A DNA stretch of 64,000 nt, taken from assembly GCA_041300525.1 (NCBI GenBank), contig JBGLNJ010000001.1:748854-812853 (forward strand), given 5' to 3'. A program made the position numbers and the translations under genes. The notes below the pieces were generated by a model. It made no database searches. It was not told where the DNA came from and saw only the letters and a program-made list of their open reading frames with translations. Of this stretch, positions 8,799-27,649 are shown piece after piece (the first letter of the stretch is position 1; the number at the start of each line of letters is the position of its first letter). The DNA is from Anaerolineae bacterium (lineage in GTDB: Bacteria; Chloroflexota; Anaerolineae; Fen-1058).

Positions 8799-9875
8799 CT
8801 AATGCCGAATGACTAGCGGCAAATAGTTATAAACCCAAATAGGGACCGTCAACACCTTGGTCACGCTGTTCACACTATTACTGGCAGTGACGACGGCAGT
8901 ATAGCTGCCCGCAACACCATAGGCACAAGTGACCGTCGCGCCGCTGCGGATCACGCCATCGCCTAGATTCCAAATGTAGTCCACATTGCTGCCCGTGGGG
9001 ACATACGCCATGAATGTGACGATCTCGCCCGGTTGCTTGGGCCCGTTGTGACTCGCCACCAATGCCGTCGTCACTCGCACATCGTCAATGTACCACTCGT
9101 CAGCACTGTTCCCCTCATAGCGGAACGCCAGGTAGTTGGGCTGACTCGCAAAAGCGCCCAGGCTCACCGACACTTGCTCCCATGTTGATTCGGTCCCCGT
9201 CATCACCTGAGCCAATTCCACAAAGTCACCGTCTTTGGGGTCCGGGCTGCCAGTCGAGATCCATATACTGTGCCTGTAATAGTAGGGCGCGTATCGCTCG
9301 AATTGCCAAAAGACGAGTTGGCTTTCGGCGGTCGGCGTCACGCGGCGGGTGATGAGCCACGCATCTTGCATGCCAAAGGCGTCATCGTGAAACGCGCTGT
9401 AAACGCCGCGATACGCGTGAGCGCTGGCACGCTGCCAGTACACTGACGGGGTCAGGATGCTGCTCGACCAGCCCACCGGCAGCCAGGGTCCTTCAAAGCC
9501 TTCGCTCAACAGCGGAGAGGCAATCGGGATATCCACGCTGACGGTCGTCGTTTGTACGTAGGTGACGATCCCGTCGGTGGCAGTGACCATCGCCGTGTAC
9601 CGGCCTACAGTCGGGTAGGTGTGCATCACGACAAAGCCTTCCGCCAAGGTTCCATCAAAGTCCCAAGTGCAAGTGAAAACGCCCGGGACGGTCACTGTTG
9701 CAGTAAGTGTTGTGATCTCGCCCAGCGCAGTGGGGCTGCTACTGGTCACTACAAGCTCACCGCTCTGCGGCGCAGCCCGTATTTGTGGATCGCCAATGGC
9801 TTGAATGGCGAAGGACATGACCATCATCAAACCGAGAACCAGAACGATTGGCAGCACCAGTAACCAGCAGCGCAT
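8799..9875 (-). CDS. Membrane-anchored PKD - MAM-like/cleaved-adhesin-like - PKD protein; paralog of the C-terminal module of the giant protein
   Basis: Start at MRCWLLVLPIVLVLGLMM, preceded by a strong RBS (TAAGGAGGA). PKD motifs (WDFDGT, WNLGDG). Central domain EGFEG...YRGVYSAFHDDAFGMQDAWLITRRV...LAFRYEGNSADEWYIDDVRV aligns with the giant protein segment EGFEGAF...YCAFYDDLFGLQDGWLVTPRV...LAFRYEGNFSDEWCIDDVRV. Confidence 0.7.
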   Translation of the reverse strand: MRCWLLVLPIVLVLGLMMVMSFAIQAIGDPQIRAAPQSGELVVTSSSPTALGEITTLTATVTVPGVFTCTWDFDGTLAEGFVVMHTYPTVGRYTAMVTATDGIVTYVQTTTVSVDIPIASPLLSEGFEGPWLPVGWSSSILTPSVYWQRASAHAYRGVYSAFHDDAFGMQDAWLITRRVTPTAESQLVFWQFERYAPYYYRHSIWISTGSPDPKDGDFVELAQVMTGTESTWEQVSVSLGAFASQPNYLAFRYEGNSADEWYIDDVRVTTALVASHNGPKQPGEIVTFMAYVPTGSNVDYIWNLGDGVIRSGATVTCAYGVAGSYTAVVTASNSVNSVTKVLTVPIWVYNYLPLVIRH

Positions 9876-9961
9876 GGTGTCCTCCTTAGATTGTGGGGTA
9901 ACCCTCACGGAGCAGGTCGCCCGTGCAAGGGCTGGCACAAGACCTGCCCCAACACATAGCT

Positions 9962-12900
9962 TCATGGCCGAGCAGCGGCGCGAACCGAGTAGCCAATACC
10001 ACAGCCGCTCACCGAAGGATCATAGTTGACAATCCGAACGTAAAACGTGCCAATGTGATACGGATGGAACGTCAGGCGCGAAGCAGTTGTCCCTGGAGCA
10101 GCATCGTCGTTCCAATCGAGCAATCGCACACCGTCCGAATCATACAAATAGATGACCGTGTCCACACCCGACAGGTCAAAGGTCTCGACGACGTAGACCG
10201 TGTTTGTATCGGTAACCTGGAAGGTTATCCAGTCAGCATCGTTTGCTTGATGGAAGGTGTGGCGCTGGGCCGTGCCATCCGTGGCAATCACATGCGCCTG
10301 CACCCAAGTATCATCTGGCTCGTAGGTATCTGGGCAAGGTGGCGTATAGTTCTGCATGACCAACGGCAAGTAGGCCAGGCTTCTCACTGGCACAATCATC
10401 GTATCCGTGATCAGGCTCACGCTGTTGCTCACTGTGACCACGACCGTATAGTCGCCCGGCGCCACGTAGGTGTGCGTGACGACCGGGTCGGTCGCCGTTT
10501 GACCGTCGCCCAAATCCCATTGATAGATCGCGTTGGAGCCAGTGGGCAAAGTCGCCGTCATCGTCGTCGCGTGTCCGAGCGGCGTTGGCCCATCGTGTGA
10601 GAGAACCAGCCCGGACGTGACCCGCACATCGTCAATGCACCACTCGTCAGAGAAATTGCCTTCGTAGCGGAAGGCCAGATAGATAGGCCGGTTGGCATAG
10701 TCGCGCAAAGCAACGCGAACCTGTTGCCAGGTGTCTTCGAGGCCAGGTCTCAGTTCCCGGAATTCGAAAAAGCTTCCATCCTTCGGATCGTTGCTGTCCA
10801 ACGAAAGCCACAAGCTGTGCTTGCGATAGAGCGGCGAATAGTTTTCGTACTGCCAAAAGGCAAGTTCGCTCACCAACGTTGGCGTGACGCGCGGCGTGAC
10901 CAGCCAGCCATCTTGCAGCCCAAACAGATCGTCATAGAACGCGCAGTACCGGCCGCCGTGCGAGCGGGCGCCGTCGCGCCGCCACCATTCATCCTCTATG
11001 CGCCCCGTACGCAGCCAACTGGGCGGCGGGAACGCGCCTTCAAAGCCCTCAACCAACATCGGCCAGGCAACGGGAATGTCGGTGGTGATGTGCGCCGTGG
11101 CCATGAGCGTGTTGACCCTGTTGGTCGCGGTGACAATGGCAGTATAGACATTCACCGCCGTGTATACGTGCGTGACCGTTGGCCCGGTCGCCGTCGCGCC
11201 ATCACCCAACGACCACGTCAAGGCCACGTTCGTGCCCGTCGCCGTCGTCGCCGTCAGCACAGTGGTTTCGCCCAAGACCGTCGGCGCACTGGTGATCAGC
11301 GTCAAGCCAGTGACGGGTTGAACAACGAAAGTGTACAATGGCTCTGGCTCGTTATTCAACACGTCGAGGTCAACCTTGCTGGATTCGACGTAGGCTGTGT
11401 TGACCAGAACGCCGGTCGTGGTCAGTGGGACATCCGCCTGCACATTGATCGTAGTGAGGGAATTGGCGTTCAGGTTGCCCAGGTCACACTGCAGTGCGCC
11501 CACTGCTTCGACACAGCCCGGCGGCGCGGCGATCAGGTTGACTTGCGTTGGCAGGTTGACTGCCAGCGTGGCTGTCGTTGCCACGCCCGGGCCGGCATTG
11601 CTGATGACGAACGTGTAGGTGAGCGGGCGACCCGTGATCGCCGGATCGGACGAGACCGCTTGCGAAAGCGAGAGATTAGCGACCGCACTTGATTCGTACA
11701 CAGTCAGGTCGAAAGGACCCGCCTCGCGCGCGTTGCCTGCATGGTCGCGCGCCAGAATGCCCAGCATATAGTTGCCCACCACGTCAAAGCGCGCGTCGTA
11801 GATGAACGTCCATGTGTCGCCATTCAACGTGAGCGTCGGTGTGATCCAGGCGACATTCCCATCGGGCTTGCTCACGTGGATTTGAATAGACTGGGCGCCA
11901 TAGCCATCGCGGACCGTGCCACTGAGCACCAGATTCGTCGTGGCCTGGATCACGCCGGGCAGCGCGGTGGCAACGGTGATTGCAGGCGCGACCACGTCCA
12001 CTAGCAATGTGCGCGTGAGTGGCACAGGCGAGCGGTTGCCAGCGCTATCCACTCCGTAAAAGTAGAGCGTCTGCCACGTGCCGTCGCCCGTCCCAACGAT
12101 AGGCGCAGACGCGTACCAATCGCCGACGGCAGGCGTTACGCCAGGCCTCACGGCATACTGAGCACAGTCTTGCTCCGGCTCGCCGGGCCGCGATGCGCAG
12201 AGCTGCGCCCAACCTGCCTGGCGTTCATCTTGCACCTGTCCACTCAATCCCGCTTCGGCGGGGACGAGCAGATTATCTGCAAACGCCGACAGTGTGGCCG
12301 TGCTCAGGCTGATCGAAGGCGGCGCGCTGTCCACAGTGACGCGCCGTGCAGTCGTCCAATTGCTGGTGTTGCCAAAGCGATCGGCGGCCATCACGCGCAG
12401 ATCGAATTGCGTTCCATCCGCCGCGCCGCCAATGTTCCACAGGCACGACCACTGTCCATCAAACGGCATGGGGTCGAGGCACGTGAGGTAACCCGTGCTG
12501 CCCGTGCCCACATTGCGAACTTCAAGCGTGATCGTCGGTACGCCGGAAGGATCGTCCACCTTGCCGGACACGGTGTTGGTATAGGCGTTGACAAACGCCA
12601 CTGGCAATTCGATCAACGAGCCTTGCGGCGGAAGCGTGTCCACGTCGTGCTGCACCCACAGCCAATCGAATGCTCCGTGTACAGCATCGGCGACGATAGC
12701 ATCCACTTCAGCGGATTGACCGTCGAGCGCGGCGTTGACCGTCGCGGGGATGTTGAGCGTGCCGCTCACATTGTTCAACGCAAACACCTGCGGGCTGCCA
12801 CCCGCCAGTTGCACGCCGCCCCGCGCTGTCACGGTGACGCGCGCGCCAGGCGCAATCAGCACGCCCTCGTTGGTGTAGATGAGCGTGTAGGTGATCGCCT

Positions 12901-15900: not shown

Positions 15901-16708
15901 CGACGCGAGCGACTGCCGAAGTCGAATCGCTTGCGTCGCCGCCAATCGTGAGCGTGCCCGTGACGGCCAGGTATTGCCCGTTCGTGAGTGCGGCAAAGGT
16001 CGCGGTCGGAACGTCGGCGTCCACGGTCATCAGCGTATCGGTCATCACCGAGATCGTTCCCAGCCAGGGCGGAACGTCGTCCATGAACAACTGCGCCAGG
16101 TGCAACTGTGAGTAGGACGAGGCCAGGCCATCGCATTTGGCAAAGTCGGTCGTCGTGCTGCTGCACGCGAGGCTATGGTCGGCAAGGCCCGGCGCGGAAG
16201 TGACGGCCGTAAGATCGTAGCGCGGCGCGGCTGACCCCAGGCCATCCTTGACTCGCCGGGGCGTGCCATCGGCGTTCAACGCGGCATAGCGCACGACGGA
16301 TTGCCAGCAGTCGTTGGTCGCGTTCCAACTCACCACCCATCCGCCCAAGCGCGGCTCGAAAGCGACGGCAGGCACGCCCAATCCATAGTCAGAGCCTTGC
16401 TGGCCGATGGCGCGAGCATTGCCCACCGTGTTGCTCACCACGTCCACGCTGCGCCCCATCACCGATGTGCTGGACTTGTACACGACCATGACCCGGCCCG
16501 TGATGCGATCGGCGGCAACCTGGGTATTAGTAGCAGAACTTGCCAGGGTCCGAAGACTATCGCCGACAGTGTTGCCGTTGCCATCCAGGTAAGCCATTTG
16601 GATGCTGCCCGATGTGTCGTTCTGCCACGTGACCACGTACCGATTGTTGCCTGCCCAGGCCACAGACGGATTGGTGTCGTTGCTCACGCCCCAGTTAGCC
16701 GCGTTCAA
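9962..16708 (-). CDS. Giant extracellular/cell-surface repeat protein (~2,250 aa): N-terminal beta-rich repeats, multiple bacterial Ig-like domains, DUF11 repeats, PKD, MAM-like, PKD, and a C-terminal PPC-like domain. The 5' end is uncertain.
   Basis: Continuous ORF 9962..17368. The upstream ~660 nt overlap secY and the rplO remnant on the opposite strand, so they are unlikely to be coding. Candidate starts: TTG 16708, GTG 16687, ATG 16597. Repeated VD..PP Ig-domain boundaries (LDRTPPAVSF, VDTTPPVAV, VDTQAPVLTF, VDLAPPSPV, VDSAPPSISL, VDVVAPAITV). DUF11-like segment (LTYTFVISNAGPGVATTATLAVNLP). PPC-like C-terminus (YEPDDTW...). Confidence 0.7.
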   Translation of the reverse strand: MNAANWGVSNDTNPSVAWAGNNRYVVTWQNDTSGSIQMAYLDGNGNTVGDSLRTLASSATNTQVAADRITGRVMVVYKSSTSVMGRSVDVVSNTVGNARAIGQQGSDYGLGVPAVAFEPRLGGWVVSWNATNDCWQSVVRYAALNADGTPRRVKDGLGSAAPRYDLTAVTSAPGLADHSLACSSTTTDFAKCDGLASSYSQLHLAQLFMDDVPPWLGTISVMTDTLMTVDADVPTATFAALTNGQYLAVTGTLTIGGDASDSTSAVARVEVSQDGGPWQAATGAESWAYNWNIPLADGAHTLRVRAIDMVGNVGPATLVTVVLDRTPPAVSFALPDNSIVGATRNAAGRWQVAMSGTVNDTGGVGTHSVATLLTPNGSGWQTATLAGATWAVNYVLPAFGSDNQALSSPTGVYTFYARATDRLNNQTAPVPLTLGVDTTPPVAVLTYTGPSSTTITQTLSLSGVVTDPSVVAAGVQRLEIAFTPAGQTPGAWANTTLAQSGEGVTGTTWSHPVPVGLEGAYQINLRGTDTRNNRNDDQATWNRWRGEIDTLAPRAAITVTYRGNGSAAQTVYQGWVEDMNLTTANFQFPCALQAADRQYYDDAWWNQTTSSTPRLYRLTPACIVNGHQAITPTLHACDRYDHCTTVTGTLPSHTPPLASAVLTPTHESVLTTLNPVSLNVGAYAVNSLCTLTVTVNSTFLISTSWPSGTVTDTLWTTSWTPAGEGRYTLLALASDWTGQVQTETQPITISVDTQAPVLTFGYTVVTTTHRVSLGRVVLTGTVTDSVGLEAVQVSTAGGPWDDAAFNYARGEWRYLWYLGAEPDGAPYTVTARASDAANHVTQITRTVTVDLAPPSPVTVTLAYTNGAGVFTTLAPGQTIRDVYTPTVIITWTASSDGAGLGNYLVGWTPSSTSTTGLTSYAPAANRYHEQWIGEAQQRYAQVIAQDIYGNWQWQTVGPIYADVPTTPDYISDLKYHGWMESGCSQIGADREIARAAPSHSSLKDVQQLYLSWDDASQSDASLRFTWVGANWNSDGDLFIYLDTQPGGTTHAYDPYGTGPVITLPAQDGSQLAADYALWVEDENTARLLTWNGSAWISQTIDSALGTTPHWALDTSLRPHPEGYLRPHTDLLVPRAWLGSPTSLKLVALASEETALRVWATMPDKNPLNSPRVINPIGLPFAGSNFTLTQQYEWATLGNGVCPNQGQFAPADLRVSLVASPPGVELGYLEHDLPGVLAPGQYLDANLDGDLDLSLPVDTPSGEPALMGNGQAITYTLIYTNEGVLIAPGARVTVTARGGVQLAGGSPQVFALNNVSGTLNIPATVNAALDGQSAEVDAIVADAVHGAFDWLWVQHDVDTLPPQGSLIELPVAFVNAYTNTVSGKVDDPSGVPTITLEVRNVGTGSTGYLTCLDPMPFDGQWSCLWNIGGAADGTQFDLRVMAADRFGNTSNWTTARRVTVDSAPPSISLSTATLSAFADNLLVPAEAGLSGQVQDERQAGWAQLCASRPGEPEQDCAQYAVRPGVTPAVGDWYASAPIVGTGDGTWQTLYFYGVDSAGNRSPVPLTRTLLVDVVAPAITVATALPGVIQATTNLVLSGTVRDGYGAQSIQIHVSKPDGNVAWITPTLTLNGDTWTFIYDARFDVVGNYMLGILARDHAGNAREAGPFDLTVYESSAVANLSLSQAVSSDPAITGRPLTYTFVISNAGPGVATTATLAVNLPTQVNLIAAPPGCVEAVGALQCDLGNLNANSLTTINVQADVPLTTTGVLVNTAYVESSKVDLDVLNNEPEPLYTFVVQPVTGLTLITSAPTVLGETTVLTATTATGTNVALTWSLGDGATATGPTVTHVYTAVNVYTAIVTATNRVNTLMATAHITTDIPVAWPMLVEGFEGAFPPPSWLRTGRIEDEWWRRDGARSHGGRYCAFYDDLFGLQDGWLVTPRVTPTLVSELAFWQYENYSPLYRKHSLWLSLDSNDPKDGSFFEFRELRPGLEDTWQQVRVALRDYANRPIYLAFRYEGNFSDEWCIDDVRVTSGLVLSHDGPTPLGHATTMTATLPTGSNAIYQWDLGDGQTATDPVVTHTYVAPGDYTVVVTVSNSVSLITDTMIVPVRSLAYLPLVMQNYTPPCPDTYEPDDTWVQAHVIATDGTAQRHTFHQANDADWITFQVTDTNTVYVVETFDLSGVDTVIYLYDSDGVRLLDWNDDAAPGTTASRLTFHPYHIGTFYVRIVNYDPSVSGCGIGYSVRAAARP

Positions 16709-16940
16709 GGCCGGCTCTGAGGTGACGCCGGACGTGTTGGCCGAGGTTGGATTTGTAAAGTCCGCCAAGTTGCCTGTGGTTGTTTTGGGAGGGGGCGAGT
16801 TGCCCCATGCCCTCACGGTCAAAGCGCACCGCTTTTCCAAGTCGGCCCAGCAAAAGATAAAAGCGGCCGGCGGCACAGTCGAGGTGTTGCCGTTCGAGAA
16901 AAAGCGTGGCCACTCCACGAAAGGCAGAAATAACCCATGA
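16674..16940 (+). pseudogene. rplO: Ribosomal protein L15 gene, 3' remnant only (C-terminal ~85 aa); N-terminal Gly/Arg-rich half missing
   Basis: ...VGFVKSAKLPVVVLGGGELPHALTVKAHRFSKSAQQKIKAAGGTVEVL is an L15 C-terminus. Its stop overlaps the secY ATG (ATGA). No reading frame upstream encodes the L15 N-terminus; the giant gene's 5' end lies there on the other strand. Confidence 0.6.
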
Positions 16941-18277: not shown

Positions 18278-18320
18278 TCGCGTTCATTCCCACCCTGTGG
18301 GATGGAGAAGGGAGAGGAAT

Positions 18321-19112
18321 ATGGCAGCCAAACGAACCTACCTGATCCTTTTCGGCGCGCAAGGTTCCGGCAAGGGCACACAGGCGCGGATGTTGCAAGA
18401 GTGGCTGGGTGTGCCGCAGGTGGCGACGGGCGATTTGTTCCGCGCGAACCTGGGTCAGGGCACCGAGTTGGGAAAACTTGCCAAGTCGTACATGGATCGC
18501 GGCGAGTTGGTGCCCGATAGTGTGACGGTGGCAATGGTCGAAGATCGGCTCTCACAGCCGGACGCGGCGAAAGGCGCGATTTTTGATGGCTTTCCGCGCA
18601 ACCTGGCGCAGGCTGAGGCGCTCGACGCGATGTTGGCCCAGTGGAACACGGGCATCAAGGCGGCGGTGTACATTCAGCTCGACCGCGATGACCTGATGAA
18701 GCGCATCACGGGCCGGCGCACGTGCAAGAATTGTCAGGCGGTCTATCACGTCGAGTTCACTCCGCCGAAAGTGGCTGGGGTGTGCGATGCGTGCGGCGGT
18801 GAGGTCGTTGAGCGCGCTGACGACGCAGACAAAGTTGCGGTAGCCCGCCGGTTGGATATTTACTTTGAGCAGACCACGCCGGTGATTGATCACTATCGCG
18901 GCAAAAAGCTGCTGAAAGAAGTGGATGGCAGCCTGGGCATTGAAACGGTGCAGCAGGCCATGCGAGCGGCGATCAAGCCGAAACCGGCGCGCAAGGCCAA
19001 GCCGGCAGCCAGGCCCGTCAAGAAGGTGGCCAAGAAGGTGACCAAGAAAGCATCGGTCAAGAAGGCCAAGCCTGTGAAAAAGGCTGCGACCCAGAAAGCT
19101 ACACGCAAGTAG
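18321..19112 (+). CDS. adk: Adenylate kinase (Cys4 Zn lid) with a ~45-aa Lys/Ala/Pro-rich C-terminal tail
   Basis: Start at MAAKRTYLILFGAQGSGKGTQ, preceded by RBS GGAGAAGGGAGAGG. Lid CKNCQ...CDACGG. Tail KPKPARKAKPAARPVKKVAKKVTKKASVKKAKPVKKAATQKATRK. Confidence 0.9.
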   Translation: MAAKRTYLILFGAQGSGKGTQARMLQEWLGVPQVATGDLFRANLGQGTELGKLAKSYMDRGELVPDSVTVAMVEDRLSQPDAAKGAIFDGFPRNLAQAEALDAMLAQWNTGIKAAVYIQLDRDDLMKRITGRRTCKNCQAVYHVEFTPPKVAGVCDACGGEVVERADDADKVAVARRLDIYFEQTTPVIDHYRGKKLLKEVDGSLGIETVQQAMRAAIKPKPARKAKPAARPVKKVAKKVTKKASVKKAKPVKKAATQKATRK

Positions 19113-19120
19113 GGATTGGA

Positions 19121-19151
19121 GACCTGACAGGTTTCTAAAGCCTGTCAGGTC
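19121..19151 (+). other. Perfect 11-bp stem hairpin (GACCTGACAGG-N9-CCTGTCAGGTC) between adk and map
   Basis: Read directly from the sequence. No T-run follows. Confidence 0.4.
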
Positions 19152-19163
19152 TGAACCGGTTCT

Positions 19164-19934
19164 TTGACAATGCCCGTTGTTTTGAAATCGCCCCGCGAGT
19201 TGGAGTTGATGCGCCAGGCGGGTCACATTGTGGCCGAGGTGCTGGCACTGATGGGTGAGATGGTCAGGCCCGGCGTGACAACGGCAGAGTTGAACGCCGC
19301 CGCCGATGCGCTCATCCGCAAGCGCGGCGCGGCGCCGTCGTTCAAGGGGTATCACGGCTTCCCGGCTTCGATTTGCGCGTCCGTCAATACAGAGGTCGTG
19401 CATGGCATTCCGAGCAAGAAGCGCGCGTTGCGCGAGGGCGACCTGATCAGCGTGGACGTGGGAGCGATTTACAAGGGGTACCACGGCGACGCGGCGATGA
19501 CCTACTGCGTGGGCGCGCCCACACCGGAACAGCAGCGGCTGATGGATGTGACGCAGCAAGCGCTGGGGGTGGGCATTGTCCGGGCGCGCGCGGGGAATCG
19601 GCTGTGGGATATTATCCGCGCCATCGAAACGACGGTGCACGCAGCCGGGTACGATGTGCTGCACAACTATCAGGGGCACGGCATCGGACGCGAGATGCAC
19701 GAAGACCCCGGCATCCCGAACTCGCTGTCCGATTCGCGCGGGCGGCCGCCGAACTTGCTCCTGAGGCCGGGGATCACGCTGGCGATTGAGCCGATGGTCG
19801 TGATGGGCAGCGGCGAGCCGAGAGTCCTGGGCGATAATTGGACGGTGGTTTCAGCGGATGGAACGCTCTCGGCGCATTTTGAGCACACGATCGCGATTAC
19901 GAACGGCGAAGCGGAAATCTTGACAAAGTTGTAA
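19164..19934 (+). CDS. map: Type I methionine aminopeptidase
   Basis: 256 aa with MetAP-I metal-ligand motifs (…D…D…H…E…E). The ORF starts on TTG at 19164; the ATG at 19170 is an alternative. Confidence 0.9.
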   Translation: MTMPVVLKSPRELELMRQAGHIVAEVLALMGEMVRPGVTTAELNAAADALIRKRGAAPSFKGYHGFPASICASVNTEVVHGIPSKKRALREGDLISVDVGAIYKGYHGDAAMTYCVGAPTPEQQRLMDVTQQALGVGIVRARAGNRLWDIIRAIETTVHAAGYDVLHNYQGHGIGREMHEDPGIPNSLSDSRGRPPNLLLRPGITLAIEPMVVMGSGEPRVLGDNWTVVSADGTLSAHFEHTIAITNGEAEILTKL

Positions 19935-20033
19935 GGAGTGTCGAATGTCGAGTTCCGAATGTCGAATTTGGAGTTGCACATTTCTCTCATTCGACATTCG
20001 TCAATTGACACTCGACATTCGAGGGGGGTGAGC
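19935..20033. repeat. Inverted heptamer-array hairpin (GTCGAAT/CGAATGT ... CATTCGA units) filling the map-rpmJ spacer where infA normally sits
   Basis: GTCGAATGTCGAGTTCCGAATGTCGAAT ... CATTCGACATTCGTCAATTGACACTCGACATTCG. Its translation forms the spurious N-terminal extension of the rpmJ-frame ORF. Confidence 0.6.
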
Positions 20034-20147
20034 ATGAAAGTAACAGCGTCCGTCAAAAAGCGCTGTCCCAAGTGCAAGATCGTTCGGCGCAAAGGTATCC
20101 TGCGCGTCATTTGTGAGAATCCGAAGCACAAGCAACGGCAAGGGTAG
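20034..20147 (+). CDS. rpmJ: Ribosomal protein L36
   Basis: [37 protein letters not shown] (37 aa), the canonical L36 sequence. Confidence 0.85.
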
Positions 20148-26035: not shown

Positions 26036-26173
26036 GAACTTTTAACATTTTTCGACCCTTCCTATAGCCAATCTCATCTTTGAGAGATTGCCTGTCGGAG
26101 TGCAGTGCAGTCAGTACGAGCATGGAGCGGCGCTCGGATAAAAGTGTAACAGGTGAACCAGCCAGGGAGACGC

Positions 26174-27649
26174 ATGACGATTACGATTTTGGGCCTGGGG
26201 CCGGGCGATGCCCTGCAGCTTACGCGCGAGGCGTGGCAGGCGCTAGAGACGGCCGGCGAGGTTTATCTTCGAACGGATCGCCACCCGACTGTGCCCGATC
26301 TTCCTTCGGGTCTTGTCCTACATAGTTTTGACGATTTGTACGAGCAAGCTCAAGACTTTGAGCAGGTCTATGCGACGATTGCGGAGGAGATCGTCCGGCT
26401 GGGGCAACGAGCACAAGGCGTGGTCTATGCTGTGCCGGGGCATCCGCTGGTGGGTGAGTCCACCGTCACGCGGATTTTGAAGCAGGCCGAGCAAGCCGGG
26501 CTGCCGGTGCGGATCGTCAATGGAGTCAGCTTTATCGAGCCGATTCTGAACCGGCTGGGGGTAGATGCGCTTGACGGGTTGCAGGTGTGCGATGCGCTTG
26601 ACCTGGCCGCGCGGCATCACCCGCCGCTCAATCCTGACGCGCCCGCCATCGTCGGCCAGCTCTACAGCCGCGAGGTGGCATCCGACGTCAAGCTCACGCT
26701 GATGAATCAATACCCGGACGATCACCCGGTCAAACTGTTGCACGCTGTGGGCACGCCCGAGGAGTGCGTCGAGACATCGCCGCTGTACGAGATAGATCGC
26801 AGCAATGCTCTGGATCACCTGATGTCGCTGTACATCCCGCCGCTGCCACGGCCCGGCGCGTTCGAGACGTTTCAGGAAACCATCGCTCACCTGCGCGCGC
26901 CGGACGGTTGCCCGTGGGATCGCGAGCAGACGCACGCTTCGCTGCGTCGCAACCTGCTCGAAGAAGCGTACGAAGTCTTGGACTCACTGGACGCCGATGA
27001 TCCGGCTGCGCTGCGGGAAGAGTTGGGCGACCTGCTGTTGCAGATCGTGCTGCACAGCCAGATCGCCGTCGAGGATGGCGAGTTCAGCATGGCCGACGTG
27101 GTCGCGGCGATTGACGCCAAGATCAAGCGCCGCCACCCGCACGTCTTTGGCGATGTCCAGGTGAGCGGCGTCGGAGAATTGTTTGCCAATTGGGAAGCTA
27201 TCAAAAAAGCCGAGCGCGCGGACAATGGCAATGGCGAGAGGTCTGCGCTCGACGGCGTCCCACGCGCTCTGCCCGCGCTGGCGCAGGCCGAAGCCTTTGG
27301 GGATCGTGCGTCGCGTGTGGGCTTTGATTGGCCGAGCGTGGATGGCGTGCTCGACAAAGTAGCCGAGGAAATCAACGAGATGCGAGAGGCGCACAGCGAG
27401 CCACAGCGCGCCGACGAGTTCGGCGACCTGTTGTTTGCGCTGGTCAATGTCGCGCGATGGCTAAAGATTGATCCGGAAGCCGCGCTGAAGACCGCAAATG
27501 GCAAGTTCGCTAATCGTTTCCGCCAGGTGGAAGCGCAAGCGCGGGCGCAGTCGCGCGATCTCAAGGGAATGACCCTGGCTGACCTGGACGCATTGTGGGA
27601 GTCGGCCAAGCGGAATGGCGGCCAAGCCCTTTCGCCATCGTCGCCGTAG
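26174..27649 (+). CDS. mazG: YabN-like bifunctional protein: N-terminal tetrapyrrole (corrin/porphyrin) methylase-like domain plus C-terminal MazG nucleotide pyrophosphohydrolase domains
   Basis: ITILGLGPGD methylase-fold start, followed by tandem MazG EExxE/D regions (REELGDLLLQI, ADEFGDLLFALV). Confidence 0.8.
   Translation: MTITILGLGPGDALQLTREAWQALETAGEVYLRTDRHPTVPDLPSGLVLHSFDDLYEQAQDFEQVYATIAEEIVRLGQRAQGVVYAVPGHPLVGESTVTRILKQAEQAGLPVRIVNGVSFIEPILNRLGVDALDGLQVCDALDLAARHHPPLNPDAPAIVGQLYSREVASDVKLTLMNQYPDDHPVKLLHAVGTPEECVETSPLYEIDRSNALDHLMSLYIPPLPRPGAFETFQETIAHLRAPDGCPWDREQTHASLRRNLLEEAYEVLDSLDADDPAALREELGDLLLQIVLHSQIAVEDGEFSMADVVAAIDAKIKRRHPHVFGDVQVSGVGELFANWEAIKKAERADNGNGERSALDGVPRALPALAQAEAFGDRASRVGFDWPSVDGVLDKVAEEINEMREAHSEPQRADEFGDLLFALVNVARWLKIDPEAALKTANGKFANRFRQVEAQARAQSRDLKGMTLADLDALWESAKRNGGQALSPSSP

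Follow-up and report, generated by a model that had tools for sequence, protein, structure and literature searches.

A lysine-rich, histone H1-like C-terminal tail on an Anaerolineae adenylate kinase, a candidate electrostatic tether to cellular polyanions

Adenylate kinase (Adk), a textbook case of a soluble enzyme, serves as a model for enzyme dynamics, and energy buffering in bacteria is usually seen as spatially uniform. This report concerns an adk gene of an Anaerolineae bacterium (Chloroflexota) that lies in a 64 kb stretch of contig JBGLNJ010000001.1, referred to here as the window and analysed over its full length of 64,000 nucleotides, and whose product carries, behind a complete kinase, a polycationic C-terminal tail resembling that of linker histone H1. 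Among described kinases, the Adks of Geobacillus stearothermophilus and Bacillus subtilis (Protein Data Bank entries 1zin and 1p3j) share with the window protein the P-loop, the catalytic arginines, the Cys4 lid and the gene order secY-adk-map; compared with the solved Adks listed among its matches, the window protein has 45 extra basic, disordered residues and an isoelectric point (pI) of 9.9. Targeted Adks are known from eukaryotes, including the flagellar ADKs of trypanosomes, which bear N-terminal targeting extensions, and the nuclear AK6/hCINAP/Fap7. By analogy these would embody the same concept, i.e. an Adk core joined to a segment that brings the enzyme to a ribonucleoprotein or to where nucleotide turnover is high, although their extensions, mechanisms and lineages differ from those considered here.

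For the tail, the familiar reference is eukaryotic linker histone H1's C-terminal domain (CTD), which is basic, disordered and rich in lysine, alanine and proline. The window tail is very similar to it in composition and charge density; however, the window protein has no winged-helix domain, and the likeness is compositional, without evidence of common descent. Bacterial counterparts are the KPAA tails of AlgP and PhaF, the PAKKA tails of Hlp/HupB and Mycobacterium smegmatis Ku, and Chlamydia Hc2 (PF07382), all of which resemble the window tail in their Lys/Ala/Pro composition and lack of acidic residues. Like these, the window tail is C-terminal, predicted to be disordered and variable in length, and it contains short repeats, but it is shorter than the tails of the AlgP/Ku type. 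AlgP, a DNA binder in vitro, is found at polyphosphate (polyP) granules, the even spacing of which needs its KPAA CTD (PMC9239181); the homologous region of PhaF binds RNA directly and activates translation (PMC12818456); and mycobacterial Hlp and Ku contact DNA through their PAKKA repeats (PMC3553676). Known H1-like tails sit on DNA-, RNA- or granule-associated proteins, whereas the bearer here is a soluble nucleotide kinase. A full-text literature search returned no paper linking adenylate kinase to a lysine-rich, histone-like tail or C-terminal extension, and the joining of an Adk to an H1-like polycationic tail appears, as far as the searches show, to be an undescribed combination of two known things.

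The gene and the parts of its product are as follows, in coordinates of the window.

18321-19112, + strand: adk open reading frame (ORF), 263 uninterrupted codons from the ATG at 18321 to the stop TAG at 19110-19112
18975-19109, + strand: polycationic disordered C-terminal tail, residues K219-K263, 45 amino acids (from translation, composition, AlphaFold2 and ortholog clusters)
19019-19048, + strand: 12-nt tandem repeat CAAGAAGGTGAC in 2.5 copies, inside the tail and encoding VKKVAKKVTKK (Tandem Repeats Finder; direct-repeat family D1)
18321-18974, + strand: adenylate kinase catalytic core, residues 1-218, long type with LID (Pfam, NCBIfam, AlphaFold2)
18354-18380, + strand: P-loop GAQGSGKGT, residues 12-20 (translation; alignment A1)
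18723-18794, + strand: LID with the Cys4 zinc-type motif CKNC...CDAC (C135, C138, C155, C158; translation, and PF05191 at residues 132-167)
18310-18317, + strand: putative ribosome-binding site GGGAGAGG, purine-rich, with the ATG of adk 3 nt downstream (sequence reading)
19110-19112, + strand: stop codon TAG of adk

The tail (residues 219-263, KPKPARKAKPAARPVKKVAKKVTKKASVKKAKPVKKAATQKATRK) consists of 17 lysines, 10 alanines, five prolines, five valines, three arginines, three threonines, one serine and one glutamine, with neither aspartate nor glutamate, and has a net charge of +20. Lysine accounts for 37.8 % of its residues, alanine for 22.2 %, proline for 11.1 % and arginine for 6.7 %. Against the protein background of the window (3.2 % lysine, 8.5 % arginine), lysine is enriched 12-fold, with a probability of about 2e-14 for at least 17 lysines in 45 residues, and arginine is not enriched. 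Across all six frames of the window, the adk tail is the sole stretch with at least eight lysines in 30 residues. The charge of the tail is lysine-specific and runs against both the GC bias and the arginine bias of the organism's proteins. Neighbouring genes carry no Lys-rich tails, either in the window or in the ribosomal-protein operon flanks of related loci from the same clade (L001-L005), and the tail is therefore specific to Adk within those regions; a proteome- or operon-wide lysine trend finds no support there. AlphaFold2 assigns residues 221-263 a predicted local distance difference test score (pLDDT) of 46-56 and no secondary structure, and the tail is accordingly predicted to be disordered. 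The core alone has a net charge of 0 and a pI of 6.7, as against 9.9 for the full-length protein, and the cores of tailless sister proteins are more acidic (median net charge -5). The idea that the tail compensates for an acidic core was rejected, the window core being less acidic than those sister cores, and the whole enzyme is therefore cationic through its tail.

The resemblance to H1 does not extend to family membership. A Pfam scan (E of at most 0.1) gave no match to HC2 (PF07382) on the window tail, no linker-histone globular winged-helix domain (PF00538) and no match of any kind outside the kinase families; by the profile evidence, the tail is H1-like in composition only and appears to belong to neither the H1 nor the HC2 family. 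It holds one KPAA motif and 2.5 copies of a VxKK unit, the counterpart of the 12-nt unit. A protein search with the 45-residue tail alone produced 26 candidates, none of which scored, a short low-complexity query presumably scoring poorly in HMMER.

The core, for its part, is an ordinary Adk. Pfam ADK (PF00406) matches residues 10-195 with 158.7 bits (cut-off 26.8) and ADK_lid (PF05191) residues 132-167 with 61.6 bits (cut-off 26.6), while the NCBIfam equivalog NF001380 reaches 273.2 (cut-off 251) and TIGR01351 232 (cut-off 168). In a 48-sequence alignment of the Adk family (A1), residues G12, G17, K18, G19 and T20 of the P-loop are invariant, as are C135, C138 and C155 of the lid, with C158 at least 90 % conserved; the conserved catalytic Arg/Asp residues, R41, R93, R128, R132, R165, R177, D89, D167 and D168, are likewise invariant. 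The P-loop and Cys4 lid noted in an earlier sequence-only reading of the window are hence upheld by Pfam, translation and conservation alike. The spacing of the lid cysteines (C135-x2-C138 ... C155-x2-C158) is, by motif, that of the zinc-binding type. AlphaFold2, run with a family alignment, models the core with pLDDT above 90, a predicted TM score of 0.75 and alternating strands and helices. Solved Adks of 203-245 residues align to residues 4-219 of the query (E 1e-60 to 1e-74), and among the matches listed, of 181-245 residues, none aligned beyond residue 219. As judged from all of the defining features looked for in its sequence, the window protein is a catalytically complete, long-type, Cys4-lid bacterial Adk. 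The homologs all start with MA(A)KRTYL, the same N-terminus as that of the window ORF; a longer adk ORF from 18261, which would overlap the end of secY, was discarded for want of homolog support.

The sequence-only reading had described this core as running in frame into a Lys/Ala/Pro-rich, H1-like tail, and both the coordinates and the peptide proved exact. It had also named a way in which the fusion might be false, namely that the tail is a separate small ORF behind a missed stop; instead, the frame is continuous, the G+C content at third codon positions (GC3) is coding-like throughout (0.78 in the tail, 0.74 in the core) and independent assemblies agree. The identical 263-residue protein occurs on an NCBI metagenome-assembled genome (MAG) contig (GCA_041300445.1) and on a contig of an independent Logan assembly (SRR28346265), and a 77 %-identical ortholog has a tail of its own in the same context, L15-secY-adk-map-L36-S13-S11-S4-rpoA. 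Ortholog tails hold frame across many insertions and deletions (indels).

A survey of Adk lengths in relatives, as that reading had proposed, found a basic tail of 23-71 residues in 64 of the 65 full-length ortholog clusters whose cores match that of the window protein at 74 % identity or more (range 74-100 %). Tails are missing from all 38 clusters with 55-64 % core identity, among them Ardenticatena and other Chloroflexota, whose proteins close with 2-17 residues that are neutral or acidic. When the cores are placed in a neighbour-joining tree, the tailed proteins are monophyletic and sister to a tailless, Ardenticatena-like group. The nearest species-representative genome, an uncultured Anaerolineae MAG (L005), encodes a tailed Adk of 80 % identity, the only one in the scan of species-representative genomes; long Adk matches in L007 and in some Streptomyces turned out to be tblastn read-through rather than real tails.

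Within the clade, the tail evolves quickly while its bulk properties stay put. Median identity to the window protein is 49.5 % in the tail as against 81 % in the core, and in-frame tail indels are many, but net charge per residue remains at 0.30-0.52 (median 0.425), with lysine at about 34 %, arginine at about 8 % and almost no acidic residues. Such fast divergence with steady bulk properties is the mark of a disordered region under selection for charge and composition, not for a fold, and, on this comparison of sequences, the tail is kept clade-wide for its length (about 40-70 residues), charge (+0.3 to +0.5 per residue), preference for lysine over arginine and scarcity of acidic residues, and not for its exact sequence. 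Its ends are better conserved than its middle, the start typically reading IKPKPxRK and most tails finishing in [ST]-R-K. Some relatives have SPAKK or SPVKK motifs reminiscent of SPKK, and two clade members (P0049 and P0053) have precomputed PF07382 hits on their tails. Near-identical relatives differ in tail length by in-frame gain or loss of unit-sized pieces, which, together with the tandem repeat, implies that the tail grows and shrinks by slippage. The tail probably originated as an extension of the 3' end of adk and lengthened thereafter as short Lys-codon repeats slipped; an origin by fusion with a small basic gene already present was rejected, as the tailless Chloroflexota loci (L006-L013, 6.7-12.8 kb) contain no Lys-rich ORF.

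Other forms of extended kinase turned up in the same searches. Chloroflexota relatives of 394-461 residues (P0057, P0065, P0069, P0089, P0114 and others) are apparent tandem or double nucleotide-kinase fusions with an Adk- or cytidylate-kinase-like second half, and the representative search returned proteins of 1000-2700 residues with 5-10 Adk-like stretches (P0121-P0131).

Basic tails on Adk are not confined to this clade. An exhaustive representative search brought up Adks of 338-473 residues, with matches running into the query tail and C-termini formed by long Lys-rich tracts. A second search, with one of these as query (P0249, NOX43941.1, 'Gammaproteobacteria bacterium'), gave 119 clusters with E. 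coli-like N-termini, one of them named Candidatus Tenderia; P0303 and P0279 are further examples. Their tails measure 92-343 residues (median 175) and carry a median net charge of +58, with a range of +42 to +109 among the 40 listed. Many consist of KKK(V/A/T) repeats with little proline behind an acidic linker, and many have precomputed Pfam HC2 (PF07382) hits. The following loci were looked at.

L085 4001-5299, L086 4001-5218, L087 5001-6215 and L088 5001-6668: long-tailed adk genes, tails of 190-343 residues

All four have adk and hemB in synteny, and L086, L087 and L088 have, near adk, a divergent phosphofructokinase (PFK)-family gene and a soluble or H+-pumping pyrophosphatase; in L086 alone, PhoU_div and PHO4 lie downstream. 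A scan of two of these loci, L085 and L086, showed no real Lys-rich ORF other than the Adk tail. What these proteins have in common with the window Adk is a Lys-rich, acid-poor, low-complexity C-terminal tail; they differ in tail length, in the frequent acidic linker, in the PFK/adk/hemB context and in origin. In the neighbour-joining tree they form a separate clade far from that of the Chloroflexota, and basic Adk tails therefore arose at least twice, the window tail being the modest version and the gammaproteobacterial cases the convergent and extreme one.

Databases name the tailed proteins of both clades plain 'adenylate kinase'. One NCBIfam model of that name, NF010381 (PRK13808.1, an 'adenylate kinase' equivalog), spans 335 positions, far longer than a normal Adk, and may stand for another extended-Adk lineage. 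Membership of the window protein in it was rejected, the score being 152.4 bits, over profile positions 3-127 only, where 426 are needed; the gammaproteobacterial long-tailed Adks, at 142-220 bits, also fall below the cut-off.

By analogy with the bacterial precedents, the favoured reading, held with a confidence a little above even, is that the tail serves as a generic electrostatic tether of Adk to a cellular polyanion. It would hold the enzyme dynamically and without sequence specificity on an abundant intracellular polyanion, most probably nucleic acid (nucleoid DNA and/or RNA, including ribosomes), which is ranked first because it is the dominant polyanion of the cell, and would concentrate the re-equilibration of adenylates (2 ADP <-> ATP + AMP) at sites of high nucleotide turnover. 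The points that speak for such a tether are the in-frame fusion to a complete core, the clade-wide presence of the tail, its steady charge, its use of lysine over arginine, its restriction to Adk, the second, separate tailed clade in the Gammaproteobacteria and the polyanion-binding precedent set by the tails of AlgP, PhaF, Ku and Hlp. The sequence-only reading had been more specific, in that the tail was to tether the enzyme to nucleic acid or ribosomes. Nucleic acid draws support from the analogy with AlgP, PhaF, Hlp and Ku, but the wording is too narrow, given that the AlgP tail goes to polyP. The ribosomal half fares worse. The ribosomal proteins of the window are rich in arginine (12.4 %, with 7.8 % lysine), whereas the tail has 37.8 % lysine and 6.7 % arginine, and the neighbouring genes have no such tails; the tail is hence not a basic extension of the ribosomal-protein type, and a specifically ribosomal tether has no evidence of its own, the position in the operon being ancestral.

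Several observations weigh against a tether. One close relative (P0061, 218 residues) has no tail, which may therefore be dispensable. The ribosomal-protein neighbourhood is common to tailless relatives and says nothing about the tail. At 45 residues the window tail is short next to that of AlgP, with a 154-residue KPAA repeat region in a 195-residue CTD, or to the gammaproteobacterial tails. Lastly, nearly all precedents for Lys/Ala/Pro tails are on DNA, RNA or granule proteins and not on a soluble metabolic enzyme.

The rival that survives best, still an unlikely one, makes polyP the specific partner, with Adk held beside PPK2/polyP:AMP phosphotransferase (PAP) or PPK1 so that polyP + AMP would be converted locally to ADP and on to ATP. 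Its appeal is that Adk is the partner known to work with polyP:AMP phosphotransferase when ATP is regenerated from polyP (Resnick and Zehnder 2000, cited in PMC8776046), and a PAP activity of E. coli PPK1/Adk is cited in PMC3163519. The H1-like AlgP (net charge +55) came from a screen for enrichment on polyP granules and is found on them (PMC9239181), but DNA and RNA are bound just as well by the precedent tails. In E. coli, YihI and RNase R bind polyP through disordered Lys-rich segments, and changing the lysines to arginines abolishes the gel shift (PMC12345225), which fits the choice of lysine over arginine in the tail; Adk is, however, absent from the E. coli polyP binders of the same study. 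As to gene context, three of the four gammaproteobacterial loci place adk beside a PFK-family gene and a pyrophosphatase, one of them with PhoU_div and PHO4, but this neighbourhood concerns pyrophosphate, not polyP, and the window contains neither a polyphosphate gene nor a nucleoid-protein gene.

It is improbable, more so than a polyP tether, that the tail has no binding role at all and is either a tolerated low-complexity expansion or a segment acting on the enzyme itself, whether as a tag for solubility (an 'entropic bristle'), by modulating LID/NMP dynamics or by drawing anionic nucleotides in locally. Slippage-prone repeats, variable length, fast evolution and the tailless P0061 are what such a tail would be expected to show, but the persistence of the tail across 74-100 % core identity, with steady charge density, few acidic residues and conserved termini, and the choice of lysine against the GC and arginine bias of the genome argue otherwise. 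That Adk gained a much larger tail independently in another phylum points to selection connected with this enzyme.

Membrane association is more doubtful again, the proposal being that cationic amphipathic helices in the tail rest on anionic phospholipids and keep Adk near ATP synthase or transporters. Residues ~226-240 (AKPAARPVKKVAKKVTKK) would, if helical, have a hydrophobic moment of up to 0.87, with a lysine face opposite a Val/Ala/Thr face; this non-polar face, however, is made up solely of Val, Ala and Thr and lacks Leu, Phe, Ile and Trp, prolines recur every 10-12 residues and AlphaFold2 predicts no helix. The long gammaproteobacterial tails, which are near-pure Lys/Ala/Val/Thr of very high charge, are also more typical of polyanion binders. 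Finally, an artefact, i.e. a separate small ORF or non-coding read-through created by a missed stop or frameshift, has nothing specific in its favour (a suspicious junction at ~16.69 kb is 1.6 kb upstream of adk) and is excluded by the continuous frame, the identical ORF in independent assemblies, the 64 ortholog clusters tailed in frame and the coding-like GC3.

With tails of charge +20 in this clade and a median of +58 in the gammaproteobacterial one, acquired at least twice, the findings suggest that some bacteria localise adenylate equilibration on a polyanion. A bolder proposal, put forward tentatively and with a probability well short of even, is that polycationic Adk tails are a convergent, undescribed device that docks Adk on polyP granules or on nucleoid/RNA condensates and so organises adenylate homeostasis in space. 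If this were true, ATP/ADP/AMP equilibration, and possibly the conversion of polyP to ATP, would take place in a defined compartment and not throughout the cytoplasm, and tail length (45 to >300 residues) would tune the residence time there; H1-like disordered tails, polyphosphate granules and bacterial condensates would be linked to core energy metabolism. Were the tail merely tolerated low complexity, the finding would shrink to a minor annotation note.

Around adk, the window holds secY, map, rpmJ, rpsM, rpsK, rpsD, rpoA, rplQ, truA, a trp operon, aromatic amino-acid and sugar-utilisation genes and others, and adk has the same secY-adk-map position as in known bacterial Adks. No promoter or terminator was found in a scan around adk, and an Rfam scan of the whole window at gathering thresholds gave no hits. 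The spacer behind adk is filled by a further element.

19111-19164, + strand: very stable hairpin filling the adk-map spacer and starting at the adk stop (RNA fold -32.8 kcal/mol, z = -6.4)

The hairpin has a perfect 11-bp core stem at 19121-19151 and a sequence unique in the window. Having no U-run, it does not qualify as a canonical intrinsic terminator; it might act in mRNA stability or processing or in the tuning of expression.

Upstream, the junction near 16690 deserves description in its own right. L15 is represented by its C-terminal half alone (residues 84-157 of 158, at 16692-16913, in the region 16600-16940); what relatives have ahead of secY, namely L18, S5, L30 and the front half of L15, is missing from the window. 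On the other side, a giant minus-strand gene abutting ~16690 seems to lose its own 5' end, and the two 5'-truncated genes, head to head, suggest either a chimeric assembly join or a real rearrangement. The giant ORF (9962-~16690, - strand) is listed with 2468 residues, although its initial ~225 codons run antisense to secY and L15; its product is repetitive, rich in Thr, Ser and Val and probably at the cell surface. A paralog-like protein of 388 residues encoded at 8799-9965 (- strand) has PKD domains and the same C-terminal module as the giant ORF, with the end ...YLPLV(I/M). Downstream of adk, infA is absent between map and rpmJ (19934-20147, with L36 at 20034-20147), as it is in the related locus L003, and the ORF listed at 19938-20147 makes L36 too long by 32 codons. 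Farther on, the ORF at 26153-27649 joins a tetrapyrrole-methylase-like domain (PF00590) to MazG nucleotide pyrophosphohydrolase domains.

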